Below are positions 15,910 through 28,658 of a stretch of 64,000 nt of DNA, piece by piece (the first letter of the stretch is position 1; every line of letters begins with the position of its first letter). Source of the DNA: an uncultured candidatus Porisulfidus sp. (GTDB lineage Bacteria > Pseudomonadota > Gammaproteobacteria > Poriferisulfidales > Oxydemutatoraceae); assembly GCA_965215125.1 (NCBI GenBank), contig OZ244052.1, positions 608,001 to 672,000 of the forward strand. The letters are read 5' to 3'. Under the pieces are notes generated by a model. The model did no database searches. It had not been told where the DNA came from and saw only the letters and a program-made list of their open reading frames with translations. A program made the position numbers and the translations under genes.

Positions 15910-17607
15910 ATGACGGAAACGATAATCAAACTAAAGCAGAGCAAACGTCTCAAACGCAAGCGAGGCCAACCTAAAGGCAGACAGGTCTCGGATGTCGCTC
16001 TGTCGGAAATCAGAGATTTGTTGGGATATCGTTCCAGACGTCGCGATCTTCTGCTCGAACACTTGCATTTAATACAAGACCGCTACGGTCATATCGCTTT
16101 CGATCATTGTGTCGCACTCGCACACGAAATGAAAATATCTACATCGGAAGTCTACGAAGTTGCCACCTTTTATCATCATTTTGATTTGGTGAGCGACGAA
16201 CAAACACCGCCGCCGCCATTAACCGTTAGAGTATGCGATTCTATTAGCTGTCAAATGGACGGTTGCGAGGCATTGATAGAGGCATTAGAGAAAAACTTGA
16301 ATGCCGACGAAGTCAGAATACAACGCGTGCCTTGCGTCGGTCGTTGTGAGCAAGCACCGGTCGCGGTAGTCGGTACAAATCCCATTGCAACGGCAACACC
16401 GAAGACTATATCGGCGGCGATACAACAAAAATCAACCAAGGCACCCACCATCACAACGCATATAAGTTATGCGGCATACAAGCAAAAAGGCGGTTATCAA
16501 CTACTCAAGGCTCTGCACGACGGCACACGCAACACCGAGTCGGTGATACAAGCCTTAGACGACTCGGGATTACGCGGTTTAGGCGGTGCCGGCTTCCCGA
16601 GCGGGCGCAAATGGCGTATCGTCAAAGAACAACCGGCACCGCGTTATCTAGCGATCAATATAGACGAAGGTGAACCCGGCACATTCAAGGACCGATACTA
16701 CTTAGAAATAGACCCCCACCGTTTTTTCGAAGGGATGCTGATTGCATCATTCGTCGTAGAACTAGAAGCGATTTATATTTATTTGCGAGACGAGTACGCC
16801 GGGGTGCGCGAGATGTTGACCGAAGAACTGGAATTATTGCAAAAAGAATCCGAATTACCGTTGCCGTCCATAGAACTTCGACGCGCCGCAGGGGCTTATA
16901 TCTGCGGCGAGGAATCGGCAATGATAGAGTCCATAGAAGGCAAGCGCGGGATGCCTCGTTTGCGCCCTCCGTTCATCGCCCAAGTCGGTTTGTTCGGTAG
17001 ACCGACCTTGGAACATAATATGGAAACCTTGTATTGGGTGCGAGAAATCGTAGAAAAAGGCGGCGAATGGTTTGCTTCAAGTGGACGAAACGGGCGCAAA
17101 GGTTTACGCTCGTTCTCGGTGAGCGGGCGCGTCAACAAACCGGGTGTACATCTCGCACCGGCCGGCATCACCGTAAAAGAATTGATTGACGAATTCTGCG
17201 GCGGCATGCAAGAAGGACATGCATTCTACGGTTATTTTCCGGGCGGTGCTTCGGGCGGTATTTTGCCGGCATCGATGGGAGATATCCCGTTGGATTTCGA
17301 CACCTTGAACGAATACGGTTGTTTTATCGGATCGGCAGCGATAGTCGTGCTTTCGGATCAGGATGGGGCGCGTACGAGCGCACTCAATGCGATGCGTTTT
17401 TTCTCGCACGAATCGTGCGGTAAATGCACACCGTGTCGGGTCGGAACCTCTAAGGCGGTGATGCTGATGGAGAAAGAAAAATGGGATGTACCTTTGATGA
17501 ACGAACTGAGCAAGGTGATGGCGGATGCATCTATCTGCGGATTAGGTCAAGCCGCACCCAATCCTTTACAATGTATTATTAAGTACTTCCCATCGGAAAT
17601 AGAGTAA
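15910..17607 (+). CDS. NAD-dependent formate dehydrogenase beta subunit (NuoE+NuoF-like fusion)
   Basis: VATFYHHF, CDSISC/CVGRC 2Fe-2S, GLRGLGGAGFP, DEGEPGTFKDR, YICGEESA, ESCGKCTPCRVG. Confidence 0.92.
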   Translation: MTETIIKLKQSKRLKRKRGQPKGRQVSDVALSEIRDLLGYRSRRRDLLLEHLHLIQDRYGHIAFDHCVALAHEMKISTSEVYEVATFYHHFDLVSDEQTPPPPLTVRVCDSISCQMDGCEALIEALEKNLNADEVRIQRVPCVGRCEQAPVAVVGTNPIATATPKTISAAIQQKSTKAPTITTHISYAAYKQKGGYQLLKALHDGTRNTESVIQALDDSGLRGLGGAGFPSGRKWRIVKEQPAPRYLAINIDEGEPGTFKDRYYLEIDPHRFFEGMLIASFVVELEAIYIYLRDEYAGVREMLTEELELLQKESELPLPSIELRRAAGAYICGEESAMIESIEGKRGMPRLRPPFIAQVGLFGRPTLEHNMETLYWVREIVEKGGEWFASSGRNGRKGLRSFSVSGRVNKPGVHLAPAGITVKELIDEFCGGMQEGHAFYGYFPGGASGGILPASMGDIPLDFDTLNEYGCFIGSAAIVVLSDQDGARTSALNAMRFFSHESCGKCTPCRVGTSKAVMLMEKEKWDVPLMNELSKVMADASICGLGQAAPNPLQCIIKYFPSEIE

Positions 17608-17621
17608 CTACGGAGAATATT

Positions 17622-20390
17622 ATGGCGGCAAATCCCGAATATTTTGCAAACACGCAAACGGTCGAGTTCGTACTAAACGGACAAACCATAAGTGCTTTTG
17701 AAGGTGAGACGATTTTACAAGCGGCGAAGCGACACGGAATAGACATCCCACATCTGTGTTTTAAGGAGGGCTTGCGTGCCGACGGCAACTGCCGTGCGTG
17801 CATGGTGGAAATAGAAGGCGAGCGGGTGTTGCAACCCTCATGCGTGAGACAACCGACTGCCGATATGAAAGTCACTACCGATAATCCTCGCTCCCTACAC
17901 GCACAACGTATGGTGCTGGAGCTTCTGCAATCCGACATGGTGCAGCAAAGCTATACATTAAATAGCGAATTAGACCGATGGAGCCGTCACTTAGACCTCG
18001 GCTTGCCGCGTTTTGAAAGCCGAGTTAATCCGCCTGCCGATAATTCTCATCCGGCGATTGCAGTCAATCTCGATGCCTGCATACAATGCACCCGTTGCTT
18101 GCGCGCGTGTCGCGAAGAGCAGAACAACGATGTGATCGGTTATGCTCGGCGCGGTGCCGGTTCGGAGATTGTCTTTGACTTGGACGACCCGATGGGGATG
18201 AGTAGCTGCGTGGGCTGTGGAGAATGTGTACAGGCTTGTCCCACCGGTGCGCTCATGCCGTCGCACGAAGTCGGTATGCAAGAACTAGATCGTAAAGTTG
18301 ATTCGGTTTGCCCTTATTGCGGTGTCGGTTGCTTGCTGAGTTTTAATGTTAAGGACGATAAGATTATTTATGTCGAAGGGCGAGACGGGCCTTCCAATCA
18401 TAGCCGCTTATGCGTCAAGGGACGTTACGGCTTTGATTATATACACAATGAAGATCGGCTCACAAAACCTTTGATCCGAGTTGAGGGCACCCCTAAAATC
18501 GCCGAGATAGAATCACTGAGCGACGATGATATCTCACAAATGTTTCGCGAGGCGAGCTGGGACGAGGCTCTGGATTATGCTGCCGAAGGCTTGAAAAAAA
18601 TATACGCCGAAGGTGGTCCTTCGTCGGTTGCCGGCTTCGGGTCGGCTAAAGGCACGAACGAAGAAGCATATTTATTTCAGAAATTGATACGCACCGGTTT
18701 TGCAACCAATAATGTAGACCACTGCACGCGCTTATGCCATGCTTCTTCGGTTGCCGCACTCCTGGAGGGCATAGGTTCCGGCGCAGTCTCCAACCAAGTG
18801 TGCGATGTTAAAGAATCCGAGGTTATCGTCGTTATCGGCGCAAACCCGACCGAAAATCATCCGGTCGCTGCGACCTTTATTAAAAACGCGGCGCGTTCCG
18901 GTAAGTCTTTAATCGTTATGGATCCGCGGGCGGTAGAGCTTTCCAAACATGCCGATTATTATTTGCAGTTCAAACCCGACACCGATGTCGCATTGCTCAA
19001 CGCAATGATGCACTCTATTATCAAACAAGGTTTGGTCGATGAAAAATTCATCGCCGAACGAACCGAAGGCTATAGCGAACTGGAGGCACATCTAAAAGAT
19101 TATTCCCCCGAGGCGATGGCACCTATTTGCGGCATAGATGCAAAAACCATAGACGAAGTCGCAGCTTTGTATGCGGGATCCAAAGCCTCTATCATCTTCT
19201 GGGGCATGGGCATCTCACAGCATATACACGGAACCGACAACGCGCGGTGCCTAATCGCGCTATCGCTGATGACCGGTCAAATCGGTAGACCGGGTACCGG
19301 ATTACACCCGTTGCGCGGACAAAATAATGTGCAGGGTGCTTCGGACGCAGGTTTGATACCGATGGTCTTCCCGGATTATCAACGCGTAGACAACGATGCG
19401 GCAGCGGATCGTTTCGAAAAATTATGGGGTTGCGAACTGGACAAAAAACCCGGCTTGACCGTGGTGGAAATCATGCACGAAGCCGAACGAAAAAAAATTC
19501 GCGGCATGTATATCATGGGGGAAAATCCGGCAATGTCCGACCCGAACCTCAACCATGCCCGCAAGGCACTCGCAACACTCGACCATTTAATCGTGCAGGA
19601 TATTTTTATGACCGAGACCGCGCTGTTTGCCGATGTTATTTTGCCGGCATCGGCTTTCCCCGAAAAAACCGGTACCGTGACCAACACCGACCGTCGCGTG
19701 CAGCTCGGCAGGCAAGCCTTAGACCCCCCCGGCGATGCGCGACTGGATTTATGGATTATACAAGATATCGCACAACGCATAGGTTTGGATTGGCACTACG
19801 AAAAAGTCTCCGATGTGTTTGACGAGATGCGCGAATGTATGGATAGCATCAAAGGTATTAGTTGGGAACGGTTGGAGCAGACAGGTTCGGTCACCTATCC
19901 GTGTAGCGATGCCGAAGACCCAGGACAACCGATTTTATTTAAGGAAAACTTTCCTACCGCAAACGGACTCGGTCGCTTCGTACCGGCGGAGTTCACCCAC
20001 GCAGACGAAATGCCGGATCAACAATATCCTTTTATATTCATCACCGGACGGCAATTGGAGCATTGGCATACCGGAGCGATGACGCGGCGAGCGTCGGTAT
20101 TAGCGGCGATAGAACCCCACCCGGTTGCATCGGTACACCCCGACGATTTGGCCGCCATCGACGCGCAAGCCGGCGACACCATTAGGCTGACTTCCAAACG
20201 CGGCACCGTAGAATGTTTGGCACGTACCGACAGAGGCTTGATACGCGGACAAGTCTTTATGCCGTTTTGCTATAGAGAAGCTGCCGCCAATTTGTTAACC
20301 AACGCAGCTTTGGATCCCTACGGGAAAATACCCGAGTTCAAGTTTTGTGCATTGAAGCTGGAAAAAATAGAGTCATCACCCGCATCGTAA
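17622..20390 (+). CDS. fdhA: Formate dehydrogenase alpha subunit (Mo/W-bisPGD, Cys-ligated)
   Basis: N-terminal Fe-S motifs, CPYCGVGC, NNVDHCTRLCH, PLRGQNNVQG, IPEFK. Confidence 0.93.
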   Translation: MAANPEYFANTQTVEFVLNGQTISAFEGETILQAAKRHGIDIPHLCFKEGLRADGNCRACMVEIEGERVLQPSCVRQPTADMKVTTDNPRSLHAQRMVLELLQSDMVQQSYTLNSELDRWSRHLDLGLPRFESRVNPPADNSHPAIAVNLDACIQCTRCLRACREEQNNDVIGYARRGAGSEIVFDLDDPMGMSSCVGCGECVQACPTGALMPSHEVGMQELDRKVDSVCPYCGVGCLLSFNVKDDKIIYVEGRDGPSNHSRLCVKGRYGFDYIHNEDRLTKPLIRVEGTPKIAEIESLSDDDISQMFREASWDEALDYAAEGLKKIYAEGGPSSVAGFGSAKGTNEEAYLFQKLIRTGFATNNVDHCTRLCHASSVAALLEGIGSGAVSNQVCDVKESEVIVVIGANPTENHPVAATFIKNAARSGKSLIVMDPRAVELSKHADYYLQFKPDTDVALLNAMMHSIIKQGLVDEKFIAERTEGYSELEAHLKDYSPEAMAPICGIDAKTIDEVAALYAGSKASIIFWGMGISQHIHGTDNARCLIALSLMTGQIGRPGTGLHPLRGQNNVQGASDAGLIPMVFPDYQRVDNDAAADRFEKLWGCELDKKPGLTVVEIMHEAERKKIRGMYIMGENPAMSDPNLNHARKALATLDHLIVQDIFMTETALFADVILPASAFPEKTGTVTNTDRRVQLGRQALDPPGDARLDLWIIQDIAQRIGLDWHYEKVSDVFDEMRECMDSIKGISWERLEQTGSVTYPCSDAEDPGQPILFKENFPTANGLGRFVPAEFTHADEMPDQQYPFIFITGRQLEHWHTGAMTRRASVLAAIEPHPVASVHPDDLAAIDAQAGDTIRLTSKRGTVECLARTDRGLIRGQVFMPFCYREAAANLLTNAALDPYGKIPEFKFCALKLEKIESSPAS

Positions 20391-20498
20391 AACAAAACAC
20401 TTGCTCTGTTCAGCATTTCATCTGAGCATAATGATTACTCCTCTATAACATCATTGACGAACGATGCGCCATACCGAAACCCTCTATCACTACGACCG

Positions 20499-21266
20499 AT
20501 GTGCCGACTTGCCGCATATCTAGGCAAAGCCATTCCTTTGCGCAAACTCTTATTAGATCCCGAACATAGCCTTTATGTGCAGTCTTGGCAACCCAAAGAA
20601 TTGCAATACGCCAAGCTCAACGCCGACGGCTTCGGCTTCGGCTGGCATTATCCCGACGGACGTGCAGCCGTCTATAGAAATGCGCTACCTATATGGTCGG
20701 ATGTCAATTTGAACGACTTAGCCGACAGCCTGTACAGCGAACGGTGGTTTGCGATGGTGCGTAGTGCGACTGCAGGTTTTGCTACCGGCGTTGATAATAC
20801 ACAACCTTTTAGACACGACCGCTATCTTTATCTACACAACGGTTATATAAAAAATTTCAATCAGACCATGCGCCGAAAGATCAGCAACGAATTATCCGAT
20901 GAAATCATCGCTACGCTACGCGGATTGAACGACTCGGAATATCTATTCGCATTGTTGCGTCAATTCATTGCCGACCACCCACAGGAAAAGCTCATTCGGA
21001 TTATCAAAAACTTAATTCAATGGTTGACGACACATATAGCAGGCAACGAAGCTTTGCTCAACATGGTTATCAGCGATAGTCAATCTCTGTATGCGCTACG
21101 CTATGCTATTAATCACCAAGCACCCTCTTTGTATTTTCTAAGTGAGACCGATGCACTTTGGATTGCTTCCGAGAAACTGGATAACAGGTCGGCATGGGAA
21201 ACATTTCCCGAAAAGAAATTGATGGTGGTAGACCCCGAGTACGCGATTAGATGGACTGAGTTATGA
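20499..21266 (+). CDS. egtC: EgtC-like class II glutamine amidotransferase
   Basis: MCRLAAYLG Ntn start, NADGFGFGW, VRSAT, NTQPF, HNG, DSE. Confidence 0.8.
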   Translation: MCRLAAYLGKAIPLRKLLLDPEHSLYVQSWQPKELQYAKLNADGFGFGWHYPDGRAAVYRNALPIWSDVNLNDLADSLYSERWFAMVRSATAGFATGVDNTQPFRHDRYLYLHNGYIKNFNQTMRRKISNELSDEIIATLRGLNDSEYLFALLRQFIADHPQEKLIRIIKNLIQWLTTHIAGNEALLNMVISDSQSLYALRYAINHQAPSLYFLSETDALWIASEKLDNRSAWETFPEKKLMVVDPEYAIRWTEL

Positions 21267-22435
21267 GATACGAAGAACTCGTAGCAAAACTTTCGCAACT
21301 ACACGATAAGGTGCAATACCTAACCGCATCTATGGATGACAATGCGTATCGTCAACAATATCATCCCGACTTGAGCCCTCTAGGCTGGCACTACGGACAT
21401 ATAATCTATATAGAGAACTTATGGTTGCGCGATACCGTACTAAACGAGGGCATGCTGAAAGAAAGCGACCACCAACTCTACAACCCACGGAATACCCCCA
21501 AGCATTTGCGAGGCAAAGCCCTGACGCATAACAATACGCTTTTAGAACGAGGGCAACGACAATTCAACAATAATATCGTGTTGCTCGAAAATTTGCCGAC
21601 CCGGGTCGGCAAACATCGCTTGATGAAAGATGCATACTTGCTAAAGTTTATTCTGCAACACCATACGCTACACCTAGAGACGATGAAAATGATTATCACC
21701 CAAAAGCATATTCAAGAGACGACACCGAGCAACAACGGTTGCACTCTCAACGGCGGTAGTCTCAAACACGCCACGCAAGTTAATAAAGAACCTTTGTTAT
21801 TTGAGCGCAAGCGATACCGAATCGGAGGCAAAGACAACTGGTCTTTTGATAACGAATTACCTCATCACTCGGTAAATTTGGATACTTTCGCAATCAATCG
21901 CTCTCCGGTTAGCAACGCCGAATATTTAGGGTTTATCGAAGCCGGCGGCTATCAAGACAAGCGGCACTGGAGTACGGAAGGCTTTTCGTGGCTACAAAAA
22001 TCAAAAGTAAAAGCACCCGACGGTTGGTGCTATCAAAACGGGTGGTTTCAAGCAGACCCCGAGGGTTATCGAAGTCTTGATGCCGATGCTGCAGTCTGTG
22101 GTATTTGTTACTACGAAGCACAGGCTTTTGCGAACTATGCAAACACAAGGCTTCCGCACGAATACGAGCGGGAAGTCTCACACCCACAACTAGAAAAAAA
22201 TACCGATACATGGGAATGGTGTTTGAATAATTTTCACCCGTACTCGGGGTTTAACTCTTTCCCGTATCGCGAATACTCTACACCTTGGTTTGATAAACAC
22301 CATCATGTACTACGCGGCGGCTGCCGCTTCAACGAAGTCAATTTTCATTTGCGGGCGAGCTTTAGGAACTTTTACGAAAAACACAAGCGGCATATTTTCT
22401 CGGGGATTAGGCTCGCTTACGATATCCACCCGTAG
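21263..22435 (+). CDS. egtB: EgtB-like sulfoxide synthase (DinB + FGE-sulfatase domains)
   Basis: Q.HPDLSPLGWHYGH, HHTLHLE, FDNE.P.H, WEWC, FRNFY..HKRHIFSGIRLA. 4-bp overlap with egtC. Confidence 0.78.
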   Translation: MRYEELVAKLSQLHDKVQYLTASMDDNAYRQQYHPDLSPLGWHYGHIIYIENLWLRDTVLNEGMLKESDHQLYNPRNTPKHLRGKALTHNNTLLERGQRQFNNNIVLLENLPTRVGKHRLMKDAYLLKFILQHHTLHLETMKMIITQKHIQETTPSNNGCTLNGGSLKHATQVNKEPLLFERKRYRIGGKDNWSFDNELPHHSVNLDTFAINRSPVSNAEYLGFIEAGGYQDKRHWSTEGFSWLQKSKVKAPDGWCYQNGWFQADPEGYRSLDADAAVCGICYYEAQAFANYANTRLPHEYEREVSHPQLEKNTDTWEWCLNNFHPYSGFNSFPYREYSTPWFDKHHHVLRGGCRFNEVNFHLRASFRNFYEKHKRHIFSGIRLAYDIHP

Positions 22436-22572: not shown

Positions 22573-24249
22573 ATGGCTAAAAACATTAGACCGCACTCTT
22601 CCATAATCGTTGACGGCGACGCGCGTGCCCCCAGTCGCTCGATGTTGCGCGCCGTAGGTTTCAAAGACAAAGATTTTAATAAGCCACAAGTCGGGATTGC
22701 TTCGACATGGGCCGAGGTAACGCCCTGCAATATGCACATTGACCGTCTGGCTCGGCGGGCGGCGAGCGCGGTTGACGATGCCGGCGGCAAAGCTCTGATA
22801 TTCAATACGATTACCGTTTCCGACGGCATTTCCATGGGCACCGAGGGGATGAAATATTCTCTGGTGTCGCGTGAAGTGATTGCCGACTCTATAGAGACGG
22901 TTGTAGGATGCGAAGGTTTTGACGGTCTCATCGCTATCGGCGGCTGCGACAAAAATATGCCGGGTTGCATGATGGCAATCGCTCGTCTAAATCGTCCGGC
23001 GATATTCATATACGGTGGCACAATTCTGCCGGGCATTTTAGGTGAACAGAAGCTAGATATCATCAGTGTATTTGAAAGCGTGGGAAGTAAAGCAAAAGGC
23101 AAAATGAGTGCCAAGCAATTCAAGCAAATTGAATCTTGCGCAATTCCCGGTCCGGGTTCTTGCGGCGGCATGTACACCGCCAACACGATGGCTTCGGCAA
23201 TAGAGGCTCTCGGCATGAGCCGACCCGGCAGTTCGGCACAAAACGCGGTATCACGTGCCAAATCCGAAGATTGTACCGGTGCCGGAAAGTTGTTAATCAA
23301 TTTAATCAAAAAGCAGATACTGCCACGCGATATTATGACCAAAAAAGCTTTTGAAAACGCCATCACAGTCGTCACTGCGTTGGGTGGTTCGACTAATGCA
23401 GTACTACATCTAATTGCGATGGCGCATAGTGCCGGTGTCAAACTAAAACTCGAAGATTTTTCGAGAATAGGACGCAAGGTGCCGGTGCTTGCCGATCTTA
23501 GGCCCAGCGGTCGCTATCGCATGTCCGAATTGATTCGCATCGGTGGTATACGCCCGTTGATGAAACGGCTGCTTGAAAAAGGACTGCTGCACGGCGACTG
23601 TCTGAGCGTCACCGGTAAAACCTTGGAACAAGACCTAAAAGGTACTTCCGACTATCCTAAAAAGCAACAAATTATCCGCGATTGGGACAATCCGATAAAA
23701 GCCGACAGCCACCTCGTGATTCTGCGAGGCAACCTAGCACCTCGTGGTGCGGTCGCCAAAATCACCGGCAAAGAAGGCACGCAATTTGCCGGTACTGCTC
23801 GGGTATTCAATTCCGAAGAGGAGGCATTGCAAAATATTTTGTCGGGAAAAATTAACAAAGGAAATGTTATCGTAATTCGCTACGAAGGTCCGCGCGGAGG
23901 GCCCGGCATGCGAGAAATGCTATCGCCGACTTCCGCGATTATGGGGCAAGGATTAGGGTCCCATGTTGCGTTGATTACCGACGGGCGATTTTCCGGAGGC
24001 AGTCACGGCTTTGTCGTCGGACATATTACCCCCGAAGCGGCGACCGGCGGTCCTTTGGCTATCGTCAAAAACGGCGACTCTATTACCATCGACGCAGTAG
24101 CAAAGACTATAAACCTCAACTTGTCCGAAGCACGGATCAAACAGCGACTAAAACAATGGAAAGCCCCCAAAACCGAACAACGGCGAGGCACACTTGCCAA
24201 ATATGCACGGCTCGTAGCTTCTGCTTCCGAGGGTGCGGTGACCGAATAG
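22573..24249 (+). CDS. ilvD: Dihydroxy-acid dehydratase
   Basis: [48 protein letters not shown]. Confidence 0.97.
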
Positions 24250-24409
24250 AACCACCACTTGCTCCAGTTGGGCAAGTGGTATCACGTTGTGCAGAAACTC
24301 TGCGTAGATATGTAGGTCGGATAGACTATAAAACCACCACTTGCTCCAGTTGGGCAAGTGGTATCAAGCTGTGCAGAAACTTTGTATGGGTATATAGGTC
24401 GGATAAACT
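24247..24409 (+). repeat. Two tandem 82-bp units; variant of structured repeat family A
   Basis: AACCACCACTTGCTCCAGTTGGGCAAGTGGTATCA occurs twice, 82 bp apart. Hairpin ACCACTTGC-N9-GCAAGTGGT followed by TGTGCAGAAACT. Confidence 0.9.
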
Positions 24410-24491
24410 ATGGTTTATCCTTATGAGTGCAAAACGGTGTAGGTTGGCTCCTACGAGTGGTTTGCAGAAATTAATGATTAGATGAATTACG

Positions 24492-24923
24492 ATGCTTGAG
24501 TTTTGGACATCCGGTCCTATTTGGAAAAAGAGCGCATATAACACCTGGTGGTGTTTGGTCGGCTGCGCAACCGGTGATTTAGGCACGATTGCATATTTCC
24601 AGATTGCCGGTATTCGGTGGCCTACACTGTCTATTATGTTGCTCGCAATGGTCAATGGTTTGATTAGTAGCATTTTATTAGAGACTTTTATTTTGATTAA
24701 ACGACAACACTTCCCGTTTGTAACCGCATTGCGGACGGCACTGGGGATGAGTTTTATTGCCATGTTGGCAATGGAGATAGCGATGAATACCACCGATTTT
24801 ATTATCACCGGAGATGCAAGGCTGACGCTTGCGGCAATATTGCCTATATTGGTGGCAGGCTTTGTCACACCATGGCCGTATAACTATTGGCGGTTGAAAA
24901 AATTAGGGCTTAGTTGTCATTGA
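24492..24923 (+). CDS. DUF4396-like membrane protein
   Basis: NT.WCL.GC..GD, LET, A.GMS.I.M.AME, AGF..PWPYNYWRL. Confidence 0.7.
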   Translation: MLEFWTSGPIWKKSAYNTWWCLVGCATGDLGTIAYFQIAGIRWPTLSIMLLAMVNGLISSILLETFILIKRQHFPFVTALRTALGMSFIAMLAMEIAMNTTDFIITGDARLTLAAILPILVAGFVTPWPYNYWRLKKLGLSCH

Positions 24924-25014
24924 CTAATCGTTTATAATAGCCTACTTAAACAAAACCCGATATTCGTGAACTAACGAAAATGATTAATCCCACTTCAATT
25001 TTAAGGAGTTTAAT

Positions 25015-25647
25015 ATGCCATTAACACAAGAAGAGCTAAAGGCTCTGATGGAACAAAAAAACATCATGCGGCGCAAAGCATACGACGCAAGAGCAGCGCA
25101 AGAAAACAAAGATGAAATTAGCGAAAGCATCTGCGAAAAATTCATTGCTTTGCCGGAATACCAAAATGCGAAAACCGTAATGTGGTATATAGATTGCCGT
25201 TCCGAGACGCGCACTAAAAAACATCTGCAACTAGAAATCGATAAACAAGACAAGAAAATTATCGTCCCCTACTGCACGGTGGACGAGAAAGGCGACAATA
25301 AGTTGGGACTTTGGCATTTGAGCAATTTCGACGAGTTGATCGTCGGTAAATGGAACATCTTGGAACCACCACGCGAATTATGGGGTAACCCCGACAAAGA
25401 GGTAGAACCCGAAGAACTTGATATCGTTATGGTGCCCGGTGTCGGTTTTGACCGCAACGGCGGGCGCATGGGCAACGGTCAAGGATACTATGACCGCCTG
25501 TTGGAAAGGGCACGCAAAGATTGTCCGCTGATAGCTATCTGTTACGAATCACAGTTATTCGAAGAAATACTGGTAGGACCGCACGATATATTCATGGATA
25601 AAGTCATTACCGAAAAAGACATCTACGAGGGCCGAGGAAGGGACTAA
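25015..25647 (+). CDS. 5-formyltetrahydrofolate cyclo-ligase
   Basis: K...R, Y....SE, ILEP, D.VMVPGVGFDRNGGRMGNGQGYYDR, PHDIFMD.VITE. Confidence 0.9.
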   Translation: MPLTQEELKALMEQKNIMRRKAYDARAAQENKDEISESICEKFIALPEYQNAKTVMWYIDCRSETRTKKHLQLEIDKQDKKIIVPYCTVDEKGDNKLGLWHLSNFDELIVGKWNILEPPRELWGNPDKEVEPEELDIVMVPGVGFDRNGGRMGNGQGYYDRLLERARKDCPLIAICYESQLFEEILVGPHDIFMDKVITEKDIYEGRGRD

Positions 25648-26570
25648 TGACCGCCAAAATAGACGATACTTATGCAGAAGCCTTTAAGAGTCTCTATGTA
25701 GAGTTTTTAATCACTGCCCGAGATCGCAAATGGTTAGACCATGCGATTAACGCCTGCACCGGTAATGCGTCTAGTTCTATACTCTGCGATTGCGAAGCCG
25801 GCATGGATCGTTATGTAGGCCCGGGCGGCGACGAGCGTGCGCAAACCCCGGACGGACGTCCGGGCGCGATCATCCAACTACATGTACCGCGCTTTTGGAA
25901 GGATCGTGTCGCACGGCTTGAACGAGCGGCGTTGGTGCGTATCAGTCAGAATGTCTTGACTTGCCCGACCGCCTCTTGCTTCAATACGCTGGAGGATAGC
26001 GAGAACTATTATCAGATAGGACGCAAAGTTGCTTATTTCGGCAACGGTTATCAAAAACGTATAGAACGTTTCGGGCGGAAGATGTGGTGGATACCGATAC
26101 TCGGCGGAGAATTTATATTAGATCGCCGTCTCGGCTATAGCGAAGGTTTGATGGGCGGAAATTTATGGTTCTTCGGCAAAGATACGGATTCGGCACTTGA
26201 CGCCGCCGAAAAAGGTGTTGCGGCGATTGCCCCGATGCCCGAGGTCGTCACGACTTTTCCCGGCGGCATTGCCGGAAGTGGATCTAAGGCAGGTAGCCGC
26301 TACGATTTTACGATTGCCAGTACTTACGAAAAATTCTGTCCGATGCTTCAACAAAACCCTGATGTGGAACGCGGGCTACCCGAGGGTGTTGCCTCGGTGA
26401 TGGAGATTATTATGAACGGTCGGAATATAGAAGCCATCATCAATGCCACCCAAGCGGCGATATCGGCATCCAAAGATACCGAGGGTCTAATCATGATTTC
26501 GGCAGGTAACTATGGCGGCAAGCTAGGCAAGAGCCTAATCTACCTACACCCCGACAAGCAACCGACTTAA
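25647..26570 (+). CDS. ftr: Formylmethanofuran:tetrahydromethanopterin formyltransferase (Ftr/FhcD)-like protein
   Basis: IDDTYAEAF, CDCEAG, TPDGRPG, QNVLTCPT, FPGGI..SGSK.GSRY, ISAGNYGGKLG. Confidence 0.88.
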   Translation: MTAKIDDTYAEAFKSLYVEFLITARDRKWLDHAINACTGNASSSILCDCEAGMDRYVGPGGDERAQTPDGRPGAIIQLHVPRFWKDRVARLERAALVRISQNVLTCPTASCFNTLEDSENYYQIGRKVAYFGNGYQKRIERFGRKMWWIPILGGEFILDRRLGYSEGLMGGNLWFFGKDTDSALDAAEKGVAAIAPMPEVVTTFPGGIAGSGSKAGSRYDFTIASTYEKFCPMLQQNPDVERGLPEGVASVMEIIMNGRNIEAIINATQAAISASKDTEGLIMISAGNYGGKLGKSLIYLHPDKQPT

Positions 26571-26593
26571 GCAAGTTCACCGAGACTACCATT

Positions 26594-27481
26594 ATGCAAC
26601 AGGCGATTATTATGGACGGACAAAGTCTGTCACAAAAGATCGCCCAGGATTGTGCGGAACAATTAGCCGAATTAAACTATCCCGAGATTGTTTTAGCCAC
26701 CGTACTAATCGGTGATTATGCACCGAGTCGCCTTTATGTGAACTTGAAGATGCGGCTCGCTAAAAAAGCGGGGTTGATACCGCGTTTGGTTGAATTATCC
26801 GCCGATGTAAGCAACGACCAAGTCGAAGATACATTACTGAATCTTGCCAACGATAATCAGGTACACGGTATCCTCTTGCAATTGCCTCTGCCCGAACACT
26901 TAGACACCGACCGCCTGTTAGAGATGATTCCACCGGAAAAGGATGTAGACGGCTTGACCATACAAAGTATGGGACGTCTAATCAAAGACGAGGTCGGCAT
27001 GGTGCCTTGTACGCCGTTGGGTGTCATGCGGTTCATAAAAGAATACAACATTACAACCGAAGGGCGCACCGCCGTTGTAATAGGACGATCGTATCTAGTC
27101 GGCATACCGCAAATGCTACTATTATCCAAGCACGGTATCGATGCGAGCGTAACGCTGTGCCATTCTAAAACCGAGGCTATAGAGGATATTTGCCTTAATG
27201 CCGATATTATCGTCGCTGCTGCCGGCATCAACGGACTAATCGGCAAATCCGCCGTCAAACCGGGGGCTGCGGTTTTTGATGTAGGTATCACTTCGGTAGA
27301 CGGAAAAATCATAGGCGATGTCATTTTTGACGAAGTCAAAGAAGTTGCCGGAGCGATTACACCTATGCCGGGTGGCACCGGCCCGATGACGGTTGCCAGC
27401 CTCATTGAAAATACAATCAAAGCGGCACGAATGCAGGGCGTGATAGAGGACAACTCGCTAGACCAAGTAAACGAACCCTAA
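26594..27481 (+). CDS. folD: Bifunctional methylene-THF dehydrogenase/methenyl-THF cyclohydrolase
   Basis: YV..K, GILLQLPLP, KDVDG, PCTPLG, VIGRS, TLCHSKT, TPMPGGTGPMTVA. Confidence 0.93.
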   Translation: MQQAIIMDGQSLSQKIAQDCAEQLAELNYPEIVLATVLIGDYAPSRLYVNLKMRLAKKAGLIPRLVELSADVSNDQVEDTLLNLANDNQVHGILLQLPLPEHLDTDRLLEMIPPEKDVDGLTIQSMGRLIKDEVGMVPCTPLGVMRFIKEYNITTEGRTAVVIGRSYLVGIPQMLLLSKHGIDASVTLCHSKTEAIEDICLNADIIVAAAGINGLIGKSAVKPGAAVFDVGITSVDGKIIGDVIFDEVKEVAGAITPMPGGTGPMTVASLIENTIKAARMQGVIEDNSLDQVNEP

Positions 27482-27502
27482 TTAGGTGTACTAACCTTAA
27501 AT

Positions 27503-28658
27503 ATGGCAATGGCTAATCGGCAGATAGAAAATATCAACCCTCAAATTCTGCGTCAATGCCGAGAACAAATCGGATTGAGTATAGAACAAGCTGAAAAAAA
27601 AGCTGGATTGCGTACACTTGCCGGCATTGAAGCAGGTGAAAAATATCCCACCATTAAGCAAATTGAAAAGCTCGCTAAGCGATACCATGTACCAGCGTGG
27701 GTTTTTTTGAGGAGAAAACTACCTGCTAAATACCGCCTTGAAAATTTTGCATCTTATAGAAAATTCCGGAATAGTCCTATTAGCGGTTATGAAGTAAGGT
27801 CTGTAATAGCAAACGTGGAACGGTTCAGAGAATTGTTATTAGAATTCAGAGACGACATGGAAGAACCCGTACAACCTTTCTCGCCACCGCAAATAATGGA
27901 AAGTGACTTCAAAGCTACCGCAGAGATTACTCGCAAGTGGTTAGGATGTACGGATATGTCGTACCCACTTATTGAATGGAAGCGTATGCTTGAAGATAAT
28001 AATGTCTTCATTTTTACAACCAGCAAATACTCGAGCTGGTCAAAAGTTGAGCCTGATAAATTTCGAGGGCTGTCCGTATATTATGACACCTTACCGATTA
28101 TCGTCATCAATAACTCCGATACATATAAAGCACAATCATTTACATTGTTTCACGAGTTGGGACACTTACTTAAAAAACAAAGTGTTCTAGATGAGCAAAA
28201 AAAAAATAGAATTACAGGAAGACGAAGAAAAATGGTGCGATATGTTTGCCGGGGCGGTTTTGATGCCCGAGGAAGATTTTTTACGCGAAGTGGAAACATT
28301 CTCTCACGAGGAACCATTAGAAAAACAAATGAGACAAATCGAAAAACTGGCAAAAAAATTCCAGGTCAGTTCTTATGCTTTTTTAGTGAGAATGAAACAT
28401 CTAGATGTTATCACTCAACCACAATACAATGAACTTGAAAATCAGTTGAGAAAAAATTATCTTGCTTACAAAAACAAGCTACAAGGGGGAAGGATATCAA
28501 GAAATATAGTAAAAGAGGCTCTGGAGCAGTACGGCACTATTTACTCTAAGACGGTTGTGCAGATGTATCGAAATCAAGAAATCGATTTGCATAAATTTTG
28601 TAAATTGGTCGGGATCAAGAAAGTGTCGGATGCGTTGGAATTAGAAACCCTACTATGA
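27503..28658 (+). pseudogene. XRE-HTH + ImmA/IrrE metallopeptidase, frameshifted at an A10 tract
   Basis: HTH N-terminus and FTLFHELGH. The E.WCD.FAGAVLMP half lies in another frame; A10 at 28197-28206, and A9 would restore ~384 aa. Confidence 0.8.

Follow-up and report, generated by a model that had tools for sequence, protein, structure and literature searches.

A divergent formyltransferase paralog paired with 5-formyltetrahydrofolate cyclo-ligase: a candidate formate-free link from the tetrahydromethanopterin pathway into folate

The stretch of DNA considered here—64,000 nucleotides from an uncultured candidatus Porisulfidus sp., hereafter the window (G000:C1:608001-672000)—belongs to a source genome (G000) that is assembled into a single contig of 2.22 Mb and is 99% complete. 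The window encodes, in one operon, a 5-formyltetrahydrofolate cyclo-ligase (MTHFS), a divergent paralog of formylmethanofuran:tetrahydromethanopterin (H4MPT) formyltransferase, herein called Ftr2, and the bifunctional methylene-tetrahydrofolate (THF) dehydrogenase/methenyl-THF cyclohydrolase FolD. Textbook accounts of methylotrophy connect the H4MPT and folate pools solely via free formate and a formate–THF ligase. MTHFS–Ftr2–FolD may be a one-carbon (C1) entry module of another kind, which carries the formyl group from H4MPT/methylofuran-dependent formaldehyde oxidation into folate without free formate; the case for this reading is evenly balanced. MTHFS and Ftr2 form a unit with ties to the H4MPT pathway, because in near-complete genomes Ftr2 never occurred without a canonical FhcD; in Gammaproteobacteria, the pair is tied to FolD and the serine cycle as well.

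The three genes are located on the forward strand. The pair-type MTHFS of 210 residues (25015–25647; PF01812, TIGR02727) is followed by Ftr2 with 307 residues (25647–26570; PF01913 and PF02741, TIGR03119) and by FolD with 295 residues (26594–27481; PF00763 and PF02882). As read directly from the letters, MTHFS and Ftr2 are coupled by a TAATG stop/start overlap at 25645–25649 (+), in which the TAA stop and the ATG start have one base in common, and 23 bases lie between the Ftr2 stop (end 26570) and the folD ATG (26594). The preliminary description of this DNA had reported both junctions as well as the lack of fhcA/B/C and mch in the window; the former were confirmed from the open reading frames (ORFs) and the sequence, and the missing genes were located elsewhere in G000. 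A promoter and terminator scan of 24200–27800 yielded counts not above those in shuffled sequence.

Ftr2 contains both lobes of the formyltransferase family (FTR 141.5 bits, FTR_C 158.8 bits). It exceeds the cut-off of NF002554 (315.7 bits vs 297) and is barely over that of TIGR03119 fhcD (296.7 bits vs 292.6), and public annotation names it a plain formylmethanofuran–H4MPT formyltransferase. With the canonical FhcD of its own genome, it shares 39% identity. In a tree of 60 rows, Ftr2 forms a separate clade (15 rows vs 45 canonical Ftr/FhcD rows, SH-aLRT 100, stem 0.56), a result confirmed in a second tree; the phylogeny proposed in the preliminary description hence places Ftr2 outside the canonical FhcD clade. 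Nor is Ftr2 the only copy, which had been named as an outcome against the proposal: a canonical fhcD (415.9 bits) lies in the fhcBADC cluster (order fhcC-D-A-B) at 1,905,679–1,910,285, at a distance of 1.27 Mb. Against the FhcD of Methylorubrum extorquens, Ftr2 scores 158 bits and the canonical copy of the same genome 323.5 bits. A closer relationship to archaeal Ftr was considered and dropped, as Ftr2 scores 214–228 bits to archaeal chains and the canonical copy 277–295 bits. Ftr2 is therefore simply more distant from everything.

The AlphaFold2 model of Ftr2 (pLDDT 79.5) matches 1ftr_A in Foldseek (E 3.3e-33, TM-score 0.79/0.82), and the known structures of FhcD and archaeal Ftr (PDB 1FTR, 1M5H, 1M5S, and chain D of 6S6Y) exhibit the same two-lobe fold (TM-score 0.78–0.82) and the same Pfam domains. 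E253 of Ftr2 aligns with the catalytic E245 of 1ftr (Glu245 in M. kandleri) and is invariant in 28/28 orthologs; its counterpart in M. extorquens FhcD is Glu252, as given in Hemmann 2019 (PMC6926001). Canonical Ftr/FhcD sequences have 28 columns with a conservation of 85% or more; Ftr2 keeps 25 of them, among these the catalytic Glu. Two marks distinguish the clade: Glu19 is present in 161/161 Ftr2 sequences at a position where 89% of the canonical sequences have a conserved Arg, and an extra insertion around residues 80–88 carries conserved F83, K85, and R87. Whereas canonical FhcD is encoded within fhcBADC, Ftr2 is found outside this cluster and paired with MTHFS.

Among 1.84 billion representative proteins, 977 matches to Ftr2 were found; one is full-length at 65% identity, and the other full-length matches reach at most 47%. 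In metagenome protein clusters, 4,234 match with E ≤ 1e-60, of which one comprises 854 sequences, and the best 120 matches are all 301–329 residues long. A search for Ftr2–MTHFS fusions among longer proteins returned only one unrelated Ftr protein of 572 residues. Two fragments with pieces of both Pfam families (P0012 and P0134) were rejected as fusions; we ascribe them to read-through between overlapping genes where the assembly is poor.

The MTHFS of the operon resembles the Escherichia coli YgfA type in the common family profile, the N-terminal Lys/Arg, and the GYYD block, and it is the sole family member of G000, as in most bacteria. It differs by forming a clade of its own and by its translational coupling to a formyltransferase; its role would be to carry flux rather than to salvage. 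In numbers, it matches PF01812 with 133.5 bits, passes TIGR02727 MTHFS_bact (134.3 bits, cut-off 84.9), and remains far below the E. coli-type NF007661 (45.7 bits, cut-off 343). K15, R19, P141, G142, F145, G149, R151, G153, G155, G157, Y158, Y159, and D160, and thus the block PG..F...G.R.G.G.GYYD, are invariant in 28/28 aligned orthologs; in view of solved MTHFS structures, they are putative nucleotide- and folate-site residues. A hidden Markov model (HMM) built from 28 pair-linked sequences scores 294–384 bits on nine pair-type genes and 37.5–100.9 bits on 19 MTHFS genes of other gammaproteobacteria, which have FhcD only. The pair-type clade in the MTHFS tree (22 rows, SH-aLRT 93, stem 1.93) is co-inherited with Ftr2. 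A second MTHFS-family gene occurs in only 1 of ~60 examined pair-bearing genomes (G406), which fits a pair-type enzyme that also covers ordinary 5-formyl-THF salvage. In G406 (loci L188 and L212), the additional gene is divergent and scores 81.3 bits to PF01812, compared with 152.1 bits for the pair-linked copy. FolD (PF00763 98.2 bits, PF02882 186.3 bits) is likewise the only one over the cut-off in G000 and lies below every NCBIfam FolD equivalog cut-off (best 279.2 vs 465). Being single-copy, MTHFS and FolD are not dedicated duplicates.

The order is represented by 53 species genomes, in which the coordinates of MTHFS and Ftr2 were compared by eye. Full-length Ftr2 at 70–100% identity is present in 49 of them and fragments in two more; the two genomes without it are 79% and 73% complete. 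Exactly one MTHFS match is found in 50 of the 53, and in all 50 it immediately precedes Ftr2 on the same strand. Order genomes of ~1 Mb retain both Ftr copies. Two further sets of loci consist of the best 80 of 173 relatives, with one genome per species (set A, L004–L083, mostly Gammaproteobacteria), and the best 80 of 357 relatives found with the divergent representative P0001 (set B, L092–L171, nearly all with Planctomycetota titles and including the cultured Schlesneria sp. T3-172). MTHFS lies within the locus in 76/80 loci of set A and 59/80 of set B. A strict colinearity filter is passed by MTHFS–Ftr2 in 114/160 loci (74 of set A and 40 of set B), which belong to marine Gammaproteobacteria and Planctomycetota; the gap between the genes spans −4 to +34 nt among the filtered loci of set A and reaches up to 323 nt in set B. 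Because MTHFS is upstream in 50/50 order genomes and colinear in 114/160 loci, the arrangement is not chance. Five Planctomycete genomes were inspected as a whole. Each contains a canonical FhcD (four intact with 303–442 bits, one in pieces), an Ftr2 (297–315 bits), and one MTHFS, which adjoins Ftr2 in four of the five. Of the three-gene neighborhood noted at the outset, the MTHFS–Ftr2 part is conserved across two phyla; the FolD part is weaker, with 62/80 loci in set A and 0/80 in set B. Median identities to the proteins of the window amount to 82% (Ftr2), 72% (IlvD), and 52% (FolD).

With canonical sequences as the root, the Ftr2 sequences of Gammaproteobacteria form a clade (16 rows, SH-aLRT 100) that is nested inside a Planctomycete grade, and the MTHFS tree is compatible with such a nesting, both being quick trees of limited sampling. 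This nesting suggests that the pair was transferred from Planctomycetota to Gammaproteobacteria, and it probably arose in the former. Odd bin labels occur at L076, L058, L025, L130, and L168 (Pirellulaceae, Planctomycetaceae, Mycobacterium, Acidobacteriota, and Kuenenia). These loci carry gammaproteobacterial- or Planctomycete-type pairs and represent either mis-binning or further transfers.

G000 contains the remaining H4MPT-dependent machinery. Next to fhcBADC, it has mch (104,373–105,314), fae, MptN-like and CitG-like genes, two Mpt_N-domain dehydrogenases, and one dehydrogenase of the pyrroloquinoline quinone (PQQ) methanol/ethanol family (775 bits). Formate–THF ligase (fhs/ftfL, PF01268) is absent from G000, the best score being 19.4 bits, and PurU has no match over the cut-off in this genome. 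Separate fhcBADC and mch genes in the absence of fhs are the genome content that the preliminary description had suggested looking for. Naive ORF calling returns two very long open frames near these genes, one of 15,111 residues at G000:C1:1910665-1956000, which starts 380 bp from fhcB, and one of 3,196 residues at G000:C1:109405-118995 beside the H4MPT gene cluster.

Across the order, fhs occurs in 3/53 genomes, all three of which keep the MTHFS–Ftr2 pair, and it is found in 0/5 of the pair-bearing Planctomycete genomes. An even sample of the class comprises 401 genomes, 54 with an Ftr homolog and 10 of these of the Ftr2 type; it includes four unpublished genomes, one of which (G351) is of the Ftr2 type. 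With these four left out, fhs is present in 2/9 Ftr2-bearing gammaproteobacteria (including G000) compared with 33/41 FhcD-only genomes. The nine Ftr2 genomes come from six families, and the Fisher p value of 0.0016 is overstated, since related genomes are not independent.

The second line of context is the serine cycle. Neighbors were counted by tblastn with G000 proteins on the 160 loci, whose flanks end at 6 kb, so that distal genes fall off. From ORF clustering, the common order in set A is ilvD-MTHFS-Ftr2-FolD-sga-mcl-mtkA-mtkB-hpr on one strand. On the strand of Ftr2, FolD is present in 62/80 set-A loci (directly downstream of Ftr2), sga in 57/80, mcl in 54/80, mtkA and mtkB in 45/80 each, and hpr in 25/80. 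In 50 of the 76 set-A loci with sufficient room, sga lies no more than 3.5 kb downstream of Ftr2; it follows Ftr2 directly in some loci that have no FolD, such as L011. None of FolD, sga, mcl, mtkA, mtkB, and hpr is found near the pair in the 80 Planctomycete-type loci of set B. The upstream neighbor ilvD and other recurrent ones (an ABC transporter, a peptidase, MetRS, a ferredoxin, and CysG) were rejected as parts of the module, as they are unrelated genes.

In G000, the serine-cycle genes are clustered at 1,106,386–1,111,686. They comprise an sga-like aminotransferase, a CitE-family malyl-CoA-lyase-like gene (mcl), mtkAB (malate-CoA ligase beta, mtkA, with 620.9 bits over a cut-off of 604, and alpha, mtkB), and a hydroxypyruvate/glyoxylate-reductase-like gene (hpr). 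In most gammaproteobacterial relatives, MTHFS–Ftr2–FolD stands at the head of such a cluster; in the own genus, the two are apart, and 473 kb separate the block from MTHFS–Ftr2–FolD. The block is followed by IS110, IS1380, and IS481 transposases (G000:C1:1114699-1118059; L089:12699-16059). Since these adjoin the detached block and may explain its detachment, the split is probably secondary. The mtkA gene (G000:C1:1108630-1109793) is the sole SucC/MtkA-type gene of G000, and other Ftr2-bearing gammaproteobacteria have two; G000 may hence be without a separate succinyl-CoA synthetase.

From this context, we infer the following substrates and direction of flux for Ftr2 and MTHFS. Ftr2 would transfer a formyl group onto N5 of THF, taken from formyl-methylofuran that the canonical Fhc complex makes or, possibly, straight from N5-formyl-H4MPT. 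The translationally coupled MTHFS would cyclize the resulting 5-formyl-THF to 5,10-methenyl-THF at the expense of one ATP, FolD would reduce the latter to methylene-THF, and serine hydroxymethyltransferase would feed the C1 unit into the serine cycle. In Planctomycetota, where the pair stands apart from serine-cycle genes, it would connect the H4MPT pathway with biosynthesis that depends on folate. The MTHFS reaction, driven by ATP, runs practically only from 5-formyl- to methenyl-THF, and this gives the direction into the folate pool. Furthermore, a serine-cycle operon with FolD in a genome without fhs needs a source of methenyl- or 10-formyl-THF, for which an Ftr2 that makes 5-formyl-THF would be the simplest. 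The preliminary description had arrived at the same route, and it is supported overall: the computational checks it proposed speak in its favor, and no computational result it had named as contrary was obtained. The wider claim is more tentative, its chances being put slightly short of even. It holds that 5-formyl-THF carries flux and that Ftr2 with its co-evolved MTHFS constitutes a formate-free bridge, as the principal route of C1 into the serine cycle of widespread Gammaproteobacteria from the sea and from sponges and as a general H4MPT-to-folate link in Planctomycetota.

The closest functional counterpart is the FtfL–Fch–MtdA route of M. extorquens. It has the same proposed task, namely bringing oxidized C1 from the H4MPT pathway to methylene-THF for one ATP, so the ATP cost of both routes is equal; and in M. 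extorquens, as in the Ftr2 clade, genes for C1–THF interconversion lie within the serine-cycle cluster. In contrast, the Ftr2 system lacks a formate–THF ligase and has FolD in place of Fch and MtdA, and its route would do without free formate and proceed via 5-formyl-THF instead of 10-formyl-THF. A similar logic is known from formimidoyltransferase-cyclodeaminase (FTCD), in which a transferase puts a C1 unit on N5 of THF and a second activity cyclizes it to 5,10-methenyl-THF. However, the families involved are unrelated, the group transferred is formimino instead of formyl, and ATP is not required. On energetic grounds, the formyl-transfer step of Ftr2 should be near equilibrium; for the FhcD/Ftr reaction, 4.4 kJ/mol, close to equilibrium, is stated in Hemmann 2019 (PMC6926001).

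Several points weigh against this route. The first concerns the donor. According to Hemmann 2019 (PMC6926001), the Fhc of M. extorquens binds methylofuran tightly as a prosthetic group (97% protein-bound), and FhcD docks on FhcC; a free-standing Ftr2 may hence have no access to formyl-methylofuran, which is a weak point of the proposal. The second is the acceptor, since nothing in the sequence identifies THF as such, and because Ftr2 keeps nearly all residues of the H4MPT- and methanofuran-using enzymes, its substrates may be unchanged. Moreover, four genomes (G021, G022, G028, and G175) have both fhs and the pair, and 8 of the 41 FhcD-only genomes are also without fhs. FolD is absent beside the pair in 18/80 set-A and all 80 set-B loci. 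The five pair-bearing Planctomycete genomes contain no malate-CoA ligase over the cut-off, so that a tie to the serine cycle is not inherent to the pair. Ordinary folate housekeeping could account for some of the clustering, given that G000 has no other MTHFS or FolD gene. Finally, a pair-type MTHFS that scores 294 bits with the pair HMM occurs without Ftr2 in G395 (L192, G395:C1:2051137-2054691), a gammaproteobacterium whose only Ftr homolog is FhcD and which also has fhs. The end of this MTHFS gene shares 4 bp with the beginning of a gene of the pyridoxal phosphate (PLP)-dependent Orn/DAP/Arg-decarboxylase family, and the MTHFS gene is divergent from an adjacent Mpt_N gene that resembles the methylene-H4MPT dehydrogenase MtdB; the latter neighbor points toward H4MPT chemistry.

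The main rival is that both enzymes act on H4MPT, which is considered unlikely; a cyclo-ligase for formyl-H4MPT had already been raised as an alternative in the preliminary description. Herein, Ftr2 would be a second formyl-methylofuran:H4MPT formyltransferase and the MTHFS-type enzyme an ATP-dependent formyl-H4MPT cyclo-ligase, serving as a C1 pull in the reductive direction (formate to methenyl- or methylene-H4MPT) or in the repair of a dead-end formyl-H4MPT isomer. Besides the MtdB-like neighbor of the G395 gene, the 25 retained family-wide columns with the catalytic Glu and the constant company of canonical FhcD in near-complete genomes are in accordance with this explanation. So is a suggestion in Kaster 2011 (PMC3087415), by which the MTHFS homolog of methanogens that lack THF acts on formyl-H4MPT. 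However, the pair-type gene is the only MTHFS-family gene in 50/50 order genomes with a match and in 5/5 Planctomycete genomes, it passes the MTHFS_bact equivalog cut-off, and FolD, a THF enzyme that uses the product of MTHFS, comes after Ftr2 in 62/80 set-A loci. In addition, Mch, which is present, interconverts formyl- and methenyl-H4MPT reversibly, and together with an ATP-driven cyclo-ligase it would create an ATP-wasting futile cycle.

Alternatively, MTHFS and FolD could be normal folate genes and Ftr2 a redundant or condition-specific FhcD isoenzyme, with a clustering that has no meaning for the pathway. The single copies of MTHFS and FolD and the public annotation of Ftr2 agree with this, as do some sampled methylotroph genomes with two canonical-type copies (e.g. 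G217, G381, and G071). It is nevertheless improbable: the pair is kept across Planctomycetota and several gammaproteobacterial families, mostly overlapping or nearly abutting, Ftr2 and MTHFS each form a long-stemmed clade of their own, genomes of ~1 Mb hold on to both Ftr copies, and no other gene of the cluster is as conserved as Ftr2. Very improbable is the opposite direction, in which Ftr2 drains folate formyl groups to methylofuran and on to formate via FhcA in place of the missing PurU; the lack of PurU and fhs in G000, the 4.4 kJ/mol given above, and a gene pair 4.6 kb upstream that looks like an NAD-linked formate dehydrogenase would allow it, but the coupled MTHFS irreversibly consumes 5-formyl-THF and hence competes with the drain, we know of no enzyme that makes 5-formyl-THF in bulk from methenyl-THF, and a position at the head of an assimilatory serine-cycle operon fits inflow better.

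The following genes around the operon in the window lie on the forward strand. Between ilvD and MTHFS, a gene for a DUF4396 membrane protein (24492–24923) is seen only in the closest relatives (L004–L006, L008, and L009) and is therefore a recent insertion at this junction. Downstream of folD, a gene with HTH_3 and Peptidase_M78 (ImmA/IrrE-type) domains at 27503–28658 extends over two overlapping frames (27503–28432 and 28191–28658); as each frame holds part of the M78 domain, the gene is probably frameshifted. The dehydrogenase-like pair upstream (15910–20390) encodes a Nuo51/2Fe-2S/4Fe-4S protein of 565 residues and a molybdopterin oxidoreductase of 922 residues with N-terminal Fe-S domains, and looks like the FdsB/FdsA type. 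At 20454–22435, a class-II glutamine amidotransferase gene overlaps a gene with DinB_2 and FGE-sulfatase domains; this pair resembles EgtC/EgtB of ergothioneine synthesis.

Literature searches returned no description of the MTHFS–Ftr2 pair, although the paralog may already have been described in older work on the C1 genes of Planctomycetes; the available portions of PMC5020050 and of bioRxiv 10.1101/2023.11.21.568154 make no mention of a second Ftr. Since the Ftr and MTHFS families are both known, the new part would be the switch of substrate, the coupling of the two enzymes, and their role in the pathway. If the proposed route is true, carrier-to-carrier formyl transfer combined with ATP-driven cyclization would connect the H4MPT and folate pools in a new way. 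5-Formyl-THF is normally viewed as a dead-end or storage folate, and both it and MTHFS would gain a new physiological role. The route would also explain how serine-cycle bacteria without ftfL are supplied with methylene-THF, and it would give the long-puzzling H4MPT genes of Planctomycetes a purpose beyond formaldehyde detoxification. Carriers of the pair are abundant in marine and sponge metagenomes, and as a small module of two genes it would suit trials in synthetic methylotrophy.

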